Part shown: piece after piece, positions 27,165 through 36,105 of the stretch
How the letters are laid out: the number at the start of each line of letters is the position of its first letter
Numbering within the stretch: position 1 is the first letter of the stretch
Assembly: GCA_012841145.1 (NCBI GenBank)
Contig: DUVH01000009.1
Location: forward strand, 25,296 to 89,295
Direction of reading: 5' to 3'
Origin: Clostridiaceae bacterium
GTDB lineage: Bacteria > Bacillota > Clostridia > Saccharofermentanales > DTU023
DNA length: 64,000 nucleotides
Notes under the pieces: generated by a model
Seen by the model: only the letters and a program-made list of their open reading frames with translations
Databases searched by the model: none
What the model was told of the DNA's origin: nothing
Made by a program: the position numbers and the translations under genes

Positions 27165-27263
27165 AAAACGAGTGTTTTTTAGCTTTTATGACGAAGCGAT
27201 GTCCAAAAGAGACTTTGCAAAATGATTAAAAAAACTATTGAAATTTTCTTAAGTGTATGATAC

Positions 27264-27291
27264 TTTAAATTTCTAAACATTATGTTATAAA
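27264..27291 (+). promoter_or_regulatory. Candidate promoter for the lipoprotein/C11 operon
   Basis: TTTAAA (27264-27269), 16-nt spacer, extended -10 TGtTATAAA (27283-27291). Confidence 0.35.
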
Positions 27292-27341
27292 AAATCGACA
27301 CAATTATAACGTAGTAACAATATTGAAAAGGACATACGCTT

Positions 27342-30326
27342 ATGAGAACAGGTGTTAAAACGAGATTTTTAAGTTTACTTCTTTGTGTTTGCATGGTTTT
27401 GCCGACATTGGCAGCTTGCGGAGACAAAAAAGATACCCCCCCTCCTTCTGAAGAACTGGAAATCTACTACACATCAGTGATGGTTGAATATAAATCCCAA
27501 GGAGAATACAGTGGCACGCTTACCTTGGCGGATGAAATAGATGACTCGTTTGTGGAAGTAAGTAAAGAGAAATTCACGATATCGGCATTTAGTAACGATG
27601 GCGAAGAAGAAAGTGGCGTACAAATAATTGACTTTTCCGTTACGAAAACGGATGATAGAAACCTTGCTGTTACTTTCAAATCCCCCTTTGATTATGACGA
27701 TAATATTTCATATATTCTCATGTCCGATACGGCTGTAACTGCAGATGAGAAGAAAATTGCCGCTGTTGTCTACACATACGTGCCTCAACCTGAGTTGAAC
27801 ATCGACTACAAGGGTTTATACAAAGGAACTGATGAGGCCATCATCACGGCAACCCTGACAGAAGACTGGAAGTTCGCTGAAAACATGACTTCAGATATGC
27901 TTTCTTTCCCGAGCGGATTTGACGCATCCATTGATGTGACGAGAGAGAGTGATACGAAGGCTGTTTTTGTCATAACGAATATTCCCGAGAACTATACCGG
28001 TATGGCTATTTGTGCCACGTTGAGCGCAAGCGCAATAGATTCTGAGCTCTCAACTGATACGGAACTGTACTTGGATTATTTACAACCTGAAGTTGAAATT
28101 GATCCTTATTCCGTAAGCTTTGATGTGAACACAAATGTTTTAACCGTTGGCAAAGTAATGCTTTCCGAGGGGTTTACGGGTGTCCAGGATGGTATCAGTG
28201 TTTTGAGCAATTTATACTCCGTGGCAGAACAGTCGTATGACTATGAAAACAGGGTATATTCGTTCAAATTAAAAATTGATGATAATCTTACCGCGGATAC
28301 CGATGAAAATGAATTGCTTTCATCTATAGTTGTTGACGCGATTTTAAAAACCGATACAGAAGAAATCGAGTATGCGTTTAGCCCTTACAGTGCAATGGCA
28401 GGAGTAAAGGGCAATGTAATAACAGATATGGAAAACGGCAAGGTTTATATTGAACTTACGCCGTATAACGCCACCTTTAAGGAGGGTATTTCTTCGGATG
28501 ACGTAGCAGTATCCGGTGCTGACGGGCTTACGGATTTCGAATGCTCCTCTGTCGATACGGAGAAAATCTTATATACGGCTGATTTTTCTTCTCAACTGAC
28601 AGACGGCGCTGTACTGTCCTTTAATATACCTGATTCAGTTTTGAATACAGGCTTGGGGCGTGATGCATACTCGTTTATGGTCTTCGTCCCGCCCTACTCA
28701 GATGATAGTAAAGGTATCGACTGGGCCGATCTTGGAAAGAGCGCGGCAGGTGGTTTGGCCGGTGAAATAGGCAGTTCGTTAGCCGGGTTTGTTTTGCCTC
28801 ATGTCTATGATTATTTGGGCGTTGATACTTCCAATCCCGAACTGAATGCGATTCAAGATTCGATCTCGAAACTTTCATTATCGCTATCTACCCTAACCGA
28901 TAATATCAATAAACTCGCAATTTTAGTTGAAGTCTCACAATACAAGAATACTTTGGATCATTTCCAATCATTAGAAAGCTCCTTGATTTCTTCCTCAGTG
29001 AAGCTTTTGAGTCACAAGGATGTGATCAAGTATGTGAAGGCAATTAGCGGTAATGATACTCCCGCTAAACAAGGTTTTTATAAATTCAATGAATACCTTA
29101 CCACGGTGTATGGTGAAGTCAATGCTGCTAGGGCACAGTGGGGTTATTGGGGTGTTGAGCACGAATTGATCGACATTTATAATAGATTCTGTGATCACGC
29201 CAATCATTATTCGGATGACTTGAGCCTATTTAGGGAAAATGTGCTTCGCGACGACTATTTTTCGGGAATCCCCTTAAATTACAAAGGCAGTGATCATTAT
29301 GTAGATCCTAACTACAAACGCCTAGCCCTAAATATCGACTACTTACACGAAATACTTCAAGGTGCGGAAGAATATCATGAGCACGTTGACATAGCCATCG
29401 GGCCAGTTTCTACCGAGCTCCTCAAAGGTTTTACGGATCAAGTAGGGAAATTGAACGGCAATGATGAATATGTGAAAACTGTTATACAATACGGCGACAG
29501 AATACTTAGTAATGCTAGCGGAACATCAGGCGGTATTATTGATCTTTATTTCCAGGTCATTGATATGTCGTATAATTTTGAATCGCAAACGATCAATGCC
29601 AAAAGGGCATTTGTGACGAAAGTGCAAAACGTTTATCTTTCAAACGCTGCCATCGCATTGCAGTATTGTGACGTGACCGGAGATAAAGGCAGTGCAAATC
29701 TTATTCGTACCAATATGCTCACAGTAATGGAAAAGATCGATGGTGCATTCAAACAAATTCATGAAATGGGTCTTCGAGCTACAATAGGGAACGACAAATT
29801 GCTGGTTTCGGGACAGGTGATTTCCAAGATAATGAATACAAATGGAGTTTCAAAAGGACAGAGATATCCAACTAAAACTCAGCATGAAATAGAAATAACT
29901 AAAGGTTTTGAATCTGTTTCTGACCAAACCTACCAAACCATGATGGAAAGAGCTAAAAAAAGAAATTTGAGTTTGGCAGATGATTTGCGTGCTGCCGGCT
30001 TTGTGGATGTATTGCCGGATGAAGGTAATCGATATTTGTATTCGACGGGAAATGCGAAGTACTACGGAACTGTGACTAGATTGGATGAGTTTGTCGATGC
30101 AATGAAACTTTGGGCCTACAGTGATGCTAATGCTCAAGGTGAATTAAGAGTTACCACTGTAACTCAAGACGGTGCAGGTTCTCCAATTGTAACGAAGGAT
30201 GACGTTTTACAAGTTGACTTTATTTACTCCACAAGTGTGTGGGCGACATTGTTTCTCGACGCTAAGACGGAATTTTTCGTTGTTCCTAGTTATAACCGGC
30301 TTATAGGTTTTGCCCCGGCGGGATAA
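27342..30326 (+). CDS. Large lipoprotein of unknown family (994 aa)
   Basis: Signal peptide with lipobox LAAC-G (LPTLAACGDKKD). About four tandem ~100-aa beta-rich modules by eye (aa ~40-450). Then a Gly-rich hydrophobic segment and a ~530-aa region I cannot assign. AT-rich codon usage. Confidence 0.75.
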   Translation: MRTGVKTRFLSLLLCVCMVLPTLAACGDKKDTPPPSEELEIYYTSVMVEYKSQGEYSGTLTLADEIDDSFVEVSKEKFTISAFSNDGEEESGVQIIDFSVTKTDDRNLAVTFKSPFDYDDNISYILMSDTAVTADEKKIAAVVYTYVPQPELNIDYKGLYKGTDEAIITATLTEDWKFAENMTSDMLSFPSGFDASIDVTRESDTKAVFVITNIPENYTGMAICATLSASAIDSELSTDTELYLDYLQPEVEIDPYSVSFDVNTNVLTVGKVMLSEGFTGVQDGISVLSNLYSVAEQSYDYENRVYSFKLKIDDNLTADTDENELLSSIVVDAILKTDTEEIEYAFSPYSAMAGVKGNVITDMENGKVYIELTPYNATFKEGISSDDVAVSGADGLTDFECSSVDTEKILYTADFSSQLTDGAVLSFNIPDSVLNTGLGRDAYSFMVFVPPYSDDSKGIDWADLGKSAAGGLAGEIGSSLAGFVLPHVYDYLGVDTSNPELNAIQDSISKLSLSLSTLTDNINKLAILVEVSQYKNTLDHFQSLESSLISSSVKLLSHKDVIKYVKAISGNDTPAKQGFYKFNEYLTTVYGEVNAARAQWGYWGVEHELIDIYNRFCDHANHYSDDLSLFRENVLRDDYFSGIPLNYKGSDHYVDPNYKRLALNIDYLHEILQGAEEYHEHVDIAIGPVSTELLKGFTDQVGKLNGNDEYVKTVIQYGDRILSNASGTSGGIIDLYFQVIDMSYNFESQTINAKRAFVTKVQNVYLSNAAIALQYCDVTGDKGSANLIRTNMLTVMEKIDGAFKQIHEMGLRATIGNDKLLVSGQVISKIMNTNGVSKGQRYPTKTQHEIEITKGFESVSDQTYQTMMERAKKRNLSLADDLRAAGFVDVLPDEGNRYLYSTGNAKYYGTVTRLDEFVDAMKLWAYSDANAQGELRVTTVTQDGAGSPIVTKDDVLQVDFIYSTSVWATLFLDAKTEFFVVPSYNRLIGFAPAG

Positions 30327-35827: not shown

Positions 35828-36049
35828 TGCCCTAGGTGTTTTTAGTATTTCTCTCAAGAATATATTTGTTGCAGTTTCGCAGGAACAAGAGAACCAAAGT
35901 TGCGAACATTACTTGACAGTACTCTTTTCTTCTTGCAATTATACTATATACAAATAAAGAATAAAAGCATTTGCCTGTCGAGCTTGATCATATTTATCAG
36001 CTATATTTATCAGTATATCTTTTGGAACTCAAATGAAATAAAATCTAAT

Positions 36050-36068
36050 AAAAAAAGCAAAGCTTTGC
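36050..36068 (-). terminator. Weak candidate terminator downstream of the tRNA pair
   Basis: On the minus strand, GCAAAGCUUUGC (short self-complementary stem) is followed by U7. A related motif TGCAAAGCATTTGCA lies at 36083-36097. The stem is short, so confidence is low. Confidence 0.3.
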
Positions 36069-36105
36069 AATACAAATGTACATGCAAAGCATTTGCAATC
36101 CTTAT

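Follow-up and report, generated by a model that had tools for sequence, protein, structure and literature searches.

The DNA analysed here, called the window, is a stretch of 64,000 nucleotides (nt) from the Clostridiaceae bacterium assembly GCA_012841145.1 (contig DUVH01000009.1, positions 25,296 to 89,295 of the forward strand), and the element in question is an AT-rich block at 27165-36105 that ends at the 3' end of a tRNA-Leu(CAG) gene. An earlier note, written from the letters of the window, had described this block as a possible integrase-mediated island. Its list of cargo was accurate: a 994-amino-acid (aa) lipoprotein, a C11 peptidase and two half-transporter genes of the ATP-binding cassette (ABC) type, here ABC1 and ABC2. 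The block is the right-hand part of a longer interval, called the slot, which lies between a gene for a membrane protein (left anchor) and the tRNA-Leu gene (right anchor) and also holds two leucine-rich repeat (LRR) genes, a peroxiredoxin gene and a kinase gene (Table 1). Contigs of other assemblies are designated by L numbers. The window matched contigs L081-L089, from several independent biogas-fermenter assemblies, at 99.98-100% identity; by MurD, the organism belongs to a Clostridia lineage near Mageeibacillus/Saccharofermentans, the nearest species-level genome of the GTDB collection being 73% identical.

Table 1. Features of the slot and its flanks, in coordinates of the window
Feature	Position	Strand	Remarks
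Left anchor gene	17460-19424	+	654-aa membrane protein, weak sulfatase/LtaS-like Pfam match; last gene of a teichoic-acid/choline cluster
Strain-variable segment 1	19406-24459	+	LRR1 (19615-21816) and LRR2 (22195-24318), tandem paralogous LRR surface-protein genes
1-Cys peroxiredoxin	24475-25188	-	AhpC-TSA and 1-cysPrx_C matches
Transmembrane Ser/Thr kinase with extracellular LRR domain	25416-27164	+	Pkinase and LRR_4 matches; one transmembrane segment at about residues 278-310
Remnant, first arm of the kinase/tRNA terminator hairpin as in L111	27165-27177		window reads AAAACGAGTGTT
Lipoprotein-C11 cassette	27178-32163	+	about 5 kb; putative promoter, lipoprotein gene 27342-30326 (994 aa), C11 gene 30330-32153
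Strain-variable segment 2, ABC fragment	32164-36104	+	3.9 kb; promoter, gene relic, ABC1, ABC2, AT-rich spacer
Near-consensus sigma-70-type promoter	32213-32241	+	TTGACA, 17 nt, TAAAAT; 11/12 positions
Relic of the donor operon's importer ATPase gene (its last ~21 codons)	32278-32340	+	window encodes ISVENSKITAGHSRVLINKTL; C-terminus of the L108 ATPase VSAENSKTTAGHSRVMINQAL*
Half-transporter ABC pair, exporter fold	32361-35827	+	ABC1 32361-34103, ABC2 34100-35827; each ABC_membrane and ABC_tran
AT-rich spacer	35846-36104		259 nt; no homology to L108, L109 or L099
Right anchor, tRNA genes	36106-36270	-	tRNA-Leu(CAG) 36106-36192, tRNA-Glu(CTC) 36196-36270; ARAGORN and Rfam
murD, core gene right of the slot	36333-37760	-	TIGR01087 303.7 bits, above the cut-off; protein 100% identical in L099

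The shift in composition and codon usage that the earlier note had read from single lines was borne out by windowed G+C, by G+C at third codon positions (GC3) and by the tetranucleotide signature. The core (1-19 kb and 37-64 kb, 46 bins of 1 kb) had a G+C content of 0.509 +/- 0.026, with 0.454 in its lowest bin, and the nine bins of 27-36 kb averaged 0.409, with 0.434 in the highest (z = -3.9, Mann-Whitney p = 1.3e-6 versus core). The interval 19-27 kb, at 0.450, was between the two. GC3 was 0.39-0.44 in the four genes of the block, the lowest values in the window, 0.46-0.64 (mostly 0.50-0.64) in 30 genes outside 19.4-36.1 kb, and also lowered, to 0.44-0.48, in the kinase and LRR genes. Tetranucleotide usage, normalised for base composition, gave r = 0.87-0.94 in all core windows, r = 0.52-0.55 across the lipoprotein and C11 genes and r = 0.13-0.26 across the ABC pair, which has the most deviant signature of the window. 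Windowed G+C and tetranucleotide statistics thus place the block far outside the normal range. Its left junction is at about 27178, 13 nt 3' of the kinase stop codon, and its right junction at 36105/36106, exactly where the ABC segment joins the 3' end of tRNA-Leu, as expected from the earlier note; both limits coincide with breakpoints found by genome comparison (below). A distance of about 100 nt between the edge of the block and the tRNA was not confirmed: AT-rich DNA extends fully to the tRNA 3' end, and it is the last gene, ABC2, that ends at a distance, 278 nt from the tRNA. These results confirm that the block is sharply bounded, compositionally foreign accessory DNA at a tRNA.

The content of the slot was compared with that of relatives at the murD/tRNA-Glu/tRNA-Leu locus. 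In L001 and L002 (MurD 73% and 71% identical) the slot contains nothing, and homologs of the left anchor gene adjoin tRNA-Leu directly, in convergent orientation. L110 (MurD 82%) has one LRR gene and the peroxiredoxin gene, and L111, the closest sister species (MurD 85%, UvrA 94%), has the peroxiredoxin and LRR-kinase genes, followed by a 50-nt hairpin and tRNA-Leu. L099, a 478-kb contig of the same species (MurD 100%), has the peroxiredoxin, kinase, lipoprotein and C11 genes; in the window these four are accompanied by LRR1 and LRR2 on the left and by ABC1 and ABC2 on the right. The anchors are conserved: the left-anchor protein is 74-80% identical in L110 and L111, its DNA is 99.3% identical in L099, and the tRNA-Leu/tRNA-Glu pair follows murD in L001-L003, L110 and L111 too. 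The block 27165-36105 is exactly the surplus of the window over L111, and the relatives lack its genes here; the lipoprotein-C11 unit, in particular, is absent from L111, L110, L001 and L002. The block is accessory, as the earlier note had proposed, being absent at this site from these four, which are all the other species examined.

That note had also considered that the left end of the foreign DNA may lie further left, which was correct in part: the LRR genes at 19406-24459 are independently strain-variable, but the peroxiredoxin and kinase genes between them and the block are of another kind. The peroxiredoxin gene has a host-like GC3 (0.63), its product is 89% and 94% identical at the same position in L110 and L111, and its synonymous divergence (dS) from L099 is 0.013. 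The kinase is 86% identical in L111, with a dS of 0.018 from L099. Because their conservation in sister species matches that of core genes, these two genes are vertically inherited residents of the slot and not island cargo.

Alignment with L099 located the strain differences precisely. The two strains are 99.3% identical over 17590-19405, at least 99% identical from 24460 to about 27760 and 99.76% identical over 36105-47760. Segment 19406-24459, with both LRR genes, is swapped for a 76-nt hairpin spacer and segment 32164-36104, with the ABC pair, for 111 nt, in L090 and L091 as well as in L099, and neither replacement junction of the window with L099 has sequence in common across it. Between about 27760 and 32163 identity is 80-95%, falling to 41-64% in a patch at 29060-29460 (lipoprotein residues ~574-707). 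The divergence starts inside the lipoprotein gene, the first 140 codons of which are identical in the two strains; dS is 0.27 for the lipoprotein and 0.30 for C11, compared with 0-0.02 for flanking genes, which is 15-25 times the flank value. This jump in dS argues that the two strains carry alleles imported from diverged lineages, with one cross-over probably inside the lipoprotein gene and the other at or in the tRNA. Many public short-read contigs (L102, L103, L105-L107, L090-L093) stop within ~100-200 nt of the tRNA-Leu/tRNA-Glu pair; such breaks are consistent with several slot variants co-existing in the same samples.

The hairpins next to the tRNA record part of this history. In L111, the kinase stop codon is 50 nt from tRNA-Leu and the interval, AAAAGCGAGTGTTCT...AGAACACTCGCG, directly abuts the tRNA. 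The AAAACGAGTGTT that follows the kinase gene of the window is the first arm of this L111 hairpin (GCGAGTGTTCT...AGAACACTCGC), and the sequences part after that arm. In L099, the tRNA is followed by a hairpin, ATAATCCGAAC...GTTCGGATTAT, placed between the C11 gene and the tRNA. This tRNA-proximal hairpin (~110 nt) is significantly similar to that of L001 (score 60 versus a shuffle maximum of 26) and not to the hairpins of L110, L111, L002 and L003. Since an older hairpin stands between C11 and the tRNA in L099, the tRNA gene was not the integration site of the lipoprotein-C11 unit. The ABC-bearing tRNA junction of the window is, from these comparisons, most simply the derived state. The spacer that abuts the tRNA contains a minus-strand hairpin at ~36040-36100 (-25.2 kcal/mol, z = -4.3) followed by a U run; this hairpin is predicted to be a new strong terminator for the tRNA operon, replacing the hairpin of L099 and L001.

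The ABC pair was traced to a donor-type operon. Homologs of ABC1 drop from 88-89% protein identity in L108 and L109 straight to 51%, and the L108 and L109 copies form the 3' end of an operon of five genes (Peripla_BP_2, FecCD, ATPase, ABC1, ABC2), whose importer genes are of the iron-chelate/heme/corrinoid (FecCD/BtuC) type. The window is 86.6% identical in DNA to L108 and L109 over 32279-35829, starting ~80 nt before the ABC1 start codon, in the relic of the ATPase gene. The promoter-like site listed in Table 1, identified by consensus match alone, is the best such match in 19.3-36.4 kb and lies immediately 5' of the truncation point, in DNA outside the homology. The operon (6.3 kb, 86% identical) is all that L108 and L109 have in common; it stands in unrelated core-gene contexts, and in L109 its G+C is 0.40-0.48 versus 0.54-0.57 for the host. 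A blastn search of plasmids with the ABC segment gave no match. The pair is a truncated, captured fragment of an iron-chelate-type ABC operon and a separate, strain-specific acquisition. In L108, the five-gene operon is followed at a distance of ~4.6 kb by a DDE_3 transposase fragment (18114-18611), which may hint at the way in which the operon moves.

ABC1 and ABC2 overlap by 4 nt (34100-34103) and resemble CydDC- and MsbA-type exporters in being two half-transporters with fused transmembrane and nucleotide-binding domains, made from overlapping genes. A CydDC or MsbA identity was rejected, as all NCBIfam scores, those of the best matches CydD and MsbA included, were below the cut-offs (ABC1, CydD 345.3 versus 435; ABC2, CydC 241.5 versus 329 and MsbA 310.5 versus 602); the pair is predicted to be a generic heterodimeric exporter-fold ABC transporter. 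Its native linkage to an iron-chelate-type importer suggests that it may handle a metal-chelate- or metallophore-related substrate. YbtPQ and IrtAB are exporter-fold metallophore transporters; the likeness lies in the linkage of the native operon to a FecCD/Peripla_BP_2 importer, and the difference in that these importer partners are missing in the window.

The lipoprotein-C11 unit recurs in other lineages. The lipoprotein family is tiny, with 8 clusters among 5.8e9 proteins and 39 representatives among 1.84e9; a homolog is directly followed by a C11 gene in L097 (a Ruminococcaceae metagenome-assembled genome), in L112/L114 and in L113, so that the adjacency is found in four diverged lineages in all. 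The full-length C11 subfamily comprises ~130 clusters, and its genes in L116 and L118 are preceded by other lipoproteins of ~1,040-1,060 aa. The partner in L118 shares its N-terminal ~110 residues with the 994-aa family (hhalign 96% probability, E = 1.7e-9); the match of the L116 partner to residues 22-191 is weak (54% probability, E = 1.3e-4), and homology is not established. The unit has defined limits: its left boundary is 164 nt upstream of the lipoprotein gene in the window and 134 nt in L113, and from 9-10 nt past the C11 stop codon the window is no longer homologous to either L099 or L113. Modules lie within 1.6 kb of the 3' end of tRNA-Leu, tRNA-Asn, tRNA-Gln or tRNA-Thr in four lineages (4 of 7 contexts, a small sample). 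By chance, such proximity would be expected at roughly an estimated 3-5% of loci. In L097 the pair starts 1.1 kb after tRNA-Gln(CTG), and G+C falls from 0.58 (host) to 0.46 (module); in L116 it starts 1.56 kb after tRNA-Thr(GGT).

Two of these modules are bracketed by direct repeats. In L113, which comes from another biogas-reactor organism, a 67-nt repeat, 90% identical, is found at 54-120 and 5217-5283, 5,163 nt apart; the first copy starts on the last 4 nt of tRNA-Asn(GTT) and the second comes right after C11 (score 99 versus a shuffle maximum of 29). The contig begins inside the 3' end of tRNA-Asn, hence the lack of an ARAGORN call for that tRNA. In L112, a gapped direct repeat of ~95 nt brackets the pair (0/500 shuffles reach its score); no direct repeats flank the cassette in L114. 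The L112 and L114 modules are 99% identical and their left contexts change ~150-175 nt upstream of the lipoprotein start. The left flank of L112 (3287-3469) maps 8-9 kb downstream of the module in L114 (20028-20867), an arrangement that suggests a deletion, a circular permutation or tandem copies around the module. This displacement indicates a larger rearrangement and tempers the use of the L112 repeat as clean att evidence. Together, these comparisons indicate that lipoprotein and C11 form a discrete, recurring cassette of ~5 kb. No vehicle was found for the lipoprotein by tblastn against plasmids and phages or by a profile search of viral contigs. On one Christensenellales genome (JBMNJK010000004.1), a solo homolog of the lipoprotein lies beside a serpin gene at 1.42-1.45 Mb (L095), and ~30 kb away, at 1.39-1.41 Mb (L118), a different, 1,059-aa lipoprotein precedes a C11 gene; the region is dense in TIR, NACHT/NPHP3, Fic, RelB and serine-recombinase genes and looks like a defence or mobile island.

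The 994-aa lipoprotein had no Pfam or NCBIfam match. The cysteine of its lipobox (...TLAAC26G...) is invariant in 8 homologs, and K29, 3 residues after the lipidated Cys, is an invariant residue too; the partner lipoproteins in L114, L116 and L118 have the lipobox L-T-A-C. The predicted structure starts with about four immunoglobulin (Ig)-like beta domains (40-450), which are followed by a conserved, hydrophobic linker rich in Gly (450-533), by a long helical domain (500-815) and by a beta-rich C-terminus, with a predicted local distance difference test (pLDDT) score of 63 for the full model, and a pLDDT of 74 and a predicted template modelling (pTM) score of 0.59 for a C-terminal model. Foldseek with the full model gave generic Ig-like matches only, in the N-terminal half, and a profile search of the PDB returned only noise, with Lpp at E = 0.4. 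ClyA and MakA, considered as relatives of the C-terminal part, were rejected as noise (Foldseek E 0.2-0.3, probability <= 0.08).

The C11 protein matched Pfam PF03415 with 143.5 bits (cut-off 25.8), and its catalytic motifs LWNHGSG and LDACLM are intact and align with LWSHGTG and FDACYM of PDB entries 6mzo and 6n9j. It is not clostripain itself (TIGR02806 32.9 versus a cut-off of 550) and has an extra C-terminal region of ~300 residues; it is probably a lipoprotein too, judging from a less canonical lipobox, ...VFGC. The lipoprotein always diverges faster than its C11 partner: their identities to the window proteins are 79 versus 93% in L099, 56 versus 81% in L113, 53 versus 63% in L112 and 51 versus 69% in L097. 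Compared with L099, the ratio of non-synonymous to synonymous divergence (dN/dS) of the lipoprotein is 0.26 for residues 141-560, 0.78 for 561-700 and 0.65 for 701-994, and that of C11 is 0.11. Diversifying selection on the lipoprotein was not demonstrated, dN/dS being 0.78 over the hypervariable patch. An Rfam scan of 19.0-36.5 kb detected the two tRNAs only; neither a riboswitch nor any other RNA was found to precede the cargo genes.

Bacteroidales have C11 lipoproteins at the cell surface, fragipain and DpnA/B, by which other surface lipoproteins are released and the lipoprotein toxins Bft, BcpT and CDCL are activated (PMC9308784, PMC11169675). This analogy and the strict gene linkage suggest that the C11 protease may cleave the co-encoded lipoprotein at the cell surface, thereby releasing or activating it. 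The two systems have in common a C11 lipoprotein protease with an intact His/Cys dyad, a second lipoprotein as plausible substrate and an invariant Lys near the lipidated Cys. They differ in the host, a Clostridia of Gram-positive type; in the adjacency and co-inheritance of protease and putative substrate, which is not the rule in Bacteroidales; in the C-terminal extension of the protease described above; and in the lipoprotein, which is unrelated to BcpT, Bft and CDCL and whose cleavage is a proposal.

We consider it likely that the DNA between the left anchor gene and the 3' end of tRNA-Leu(CAG) has long been a hotspot in which surface-protein genes accumulate step by step and turn over through recombination. 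What the comparisons show directly is the shift in composition, the exactness of the junctions, the absence from relatives, the polymorphism among strains, the jump in dS, the relic of the operon and, in other lineages, the recurrence of the lipoprotein-C11 pair with repeats and tRNAs. The block 27165-36105 would be the youngest filling of the slot; it consists of two independent pieces, and not of a single island as first proposed, L099 holding the lipoprotein-C11 unit without the ABC pair. The first piece is the ~5-kb lipoprotein-C11 cassette with its promoter, which may move among Clostridia lineages without a recombinase of its own; its insertions would tend to fall shortly 3' of tRNA genes or terminators and would in some cases have produced direct repeats of the target. 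The second is the 3.9-kb fragment, which was cut within the ATPase gene that comes before ABC1 and meets the tRNA-Leu 3' end exactly; it is now placed behind the near-consensus promoter-like site. Within the species, the slot content would be exchanged by homologous recombination, as diverged alleles and as presence/absence variants, through cross-overs that fall, on the left, in the conserved 5' part of the lipoprotein gene and, on the right, in the conserved tRNA. Both this recombination mechanism and the functions of the cargo are inferred.

Several observations weigh against this reading. First, neither the window nor L099 has flanking direct repeats or insertion scars, and the insertion mechanism is unreadable from the sequence here; the L113 repeat is not related to the one in L112, a shared att site is not evident, and the L112 repeat may be a by-product of the larger rearrangement. 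Second, L094-L096 (Christensenellales) carry a homolog of the lipoprotein without an adjacent C11 gene, beside a serpin gene. Third, the L099 hairpin matches the distant L001 and not the closer L110 and L111; this conflicts with the species tree, makes a simple vertical history inadequate and weakens the idea that the L099 junction is simply ancestral. One possibility is that this hairpin came with the cassette from a donor that already held the cassette beside tRNA-Leu. Fourth, the gain-versus-loss polarity of some events rests on parsimony over few metagenome-assembled relatives. As for the cargo, the C-terminal half of the lipoprotein found nothing at E <= 0.001 with Foldseek on the C-terminal model, dN/dS is not clearly above 1 and peaks at ~1.0-1.2 in single 60-codon windows, and the action of C11 on the lipoprotein is argued from analogy.

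Three other explanations were weighed. The genes could be ancestral and lost in the sampled relatives, with no horizontal transfer, their low G+C being due to protein composition or to weak codon selection in rarely expressed surface genes. The lowered GC3 of the vertical kinase gene and of the LRR genes fits this idea, in that accessory surface genes tend to be AT-richer here, and so does the small number of relatives, all metagenome-assembled. We nevertheless find it improbable. It would have to accommodate an ABC pair that is 86% identical in DNA in two unrelated contexts when the next homologs have 51% protein identity, together with an operon relic; a dS of lipoprotein and C11 that demands import of diverged alleles; an extremely sparse and patchy lipoprotein family; independent losses in L111, L110, L001 and L002; a module in L097 that is also far below its host in G+C; and a tetranucleotide signature that is still deviant after normalisation for composition.

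A classical integrase island, inserted whole into the 3' end of tRNA-Leu and later deprived of its integrase and of the distal att repeat, would account for low G+C, strain-variable accessory DNA that ends exactly at a tRNA 3' end, and for homologous modules beside other tRNAs, one of them bracketed by a 67-nt repeat from the last 4 nt of the tRNA. The earlier note suggested such an insertion and had found neither an integrase nor a copy of the tRNA 3' end; both of these negative findings were upheld. No integrase, recombinase or transposase domain was present in any large open reading frame (ORF) of the 64 kb or in the Pfam lists precomputed for matching public contigs, which cover 12.4-47.8 kb of the window, nor was there a recombinase ORF of pseudogene size. 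No copy of the tRNA-Leu 3' end was detected within the window by a 25-mer search (<= 3 mismatches) or by blastn-short (word size 7) with the tRNA and 150 nt of flank, which gave chance matches of 10-13 nt. Gapped flank-versus-flank alignments of three spacer pairs in the window and L099 were all at chance, and a ATGACGAA match seen by eye in the L099 flanks was rejected, 316/500 shuffles scoring equally well. Integrase-mediated insertion is thus left without an integrase, a tRNA-derived repeat or a significant flank repeat in the window or its sister strain. Moreover, the two units have different histories, an older terminator hairpin separates C11 from the tRNA in L099, the ABC unit is a truncated operon piece and not the end of an element, and known plasmids, phages and viral contigs yielded no relative of either module; we judge this scenario very improbable. 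Finally, an assembly artefact, a chimeric join at the tRNA genes of two organisms differing in G+C, might be suspected from the many public contigs that break exactly at the tRNA pair and deserves almost no credence, as independent assemblies made in different projects (L081, L082, L098) show the full 17.3-40.3 kb arrangement, 99.98% identical, L100, L101 and L104 span the ABC-tRNA-murD junction, and co-existing strain variants better account for the breaks.

The slot was compared with several known systems. It shares with tRNA-associated islands, such as the P4-type-integrase islands at leuX or selC, AT-rich strain-variable DNA abutting a tRNA 3' end, surface or secreted cargo and absence in sister species; unlike them, the block has no integrase or tRNA-derived att repeat, stems from at least three events and includes one piece that lies behind an older terminator. 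Cis-mobilisable elements (CIMEs) are att-flanked, integrase-less remnants known from Streptococcus thermophilus. The L113 and L112 cassettes resemble them in lacking a recombinase and in having direct repeats of the target on either side, which in L113 lie at the 3' end of a tRNA; however, the repeats differ between lineages, with no common core site, and none is detectable in the window itself. We know of no cognate helper element for the lipoprotein-C11 cassette. Surface-antigen loci exchanged by recombination in their flanks (capsule, O-antigen) are similar in that flanks are at least 99% and the inside 80-95% identical with a dS of ~0.3, that gene content is polymorphic and that all products are surface proteins. 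The slot differs in that its cargo is not a polysaccharide pathway and in its boundaries, a tRNA at one end and a point within a coding sequence at the other.

A more far-reaching interpretation, which we regard as possible though rather doubtful, is that lipoprotein and C11 make up a self-contained, recombinase-less mobile cassette of anaerobic Clostridia for a polymorphic surface pro-protein with its dedicated processing protease, a Gram-positive counterpart of the toxins activated by fragipain and Dpn, spreading beside tRNAs and terminators. The conserved N-terminal part would be a lipid-anchored handle, and the variable helical and beta-rich part a payload released or activated by C11.

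As a genomic island the block is ordinary; the modestly novel part is the recombinase-less, tRNA-associated lipoprotein-protease cassette with its orphan family. The locus is a worked example for annotation: low G+C beside a tRNA does not alone mean an integrase island, and such a signature can come from stepwise capture of unrelated fragments and homologous recombination anchored on the tRNA. The analysis also flags an uncharacterised and very rare lipoprotein family, paired with C11 as a travelling unit of ~5 kb, in which the lipoprotein evolves much faster than the protease, as would be expected if a surface protein takes part in strain-level interactions. This uncultured Clostridia species is abundant in biogas reactors, and its strain-variable surface loci are candidates for interactions with phages or competitors.

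The remaining observations concern the left part of the slot and the DNA beyond it. LRR1 and LRR2 are ~79% identical in DNA, including ~430 nt of upstream region, and encode proteins with internalin-like LRRs, a signal peptide and a sortase-type C-terminal signal; L110 has its single LRR gene (55% aa identity) at their position. The sorting signal is unusual: PxTGE (TPTTGE or PPATGE), a hydrophobic stretch and an Arg-rich tail. Its PPATG version resembles the (S/P)PXTG motif of Clostridioides difficile sortase B. The start of the kinase gene is ambiguous, TTG at 25416 giving 582 aa and a downstream start 556 aa. A 217-aa ORF at 25218-25871 (minus strand) was treated as spurious: it has no Pfam match, lies antisense to the 5' part of the kinase gene and is not called in public assemblies. 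Next to the left anchor, a 753-aa ORF (15209-17470) combines 60KD_IMP (YidC-like) and Glyphos_transf (TagF-like) domains in matching public contigs; its cluster, which also includes an NTP-transferase, a choline kinase and the LtaS/sulfatase-like protein, looks like a locus for choline/teichoic-acid decoration. Further left, a single 470-aa ORF (6692-8104) contains a YbeY endoribonuclease domain (43-169) followed by an Era-type GTPase and a KH domain (178-457), an apparent YbeY-Era fusion.

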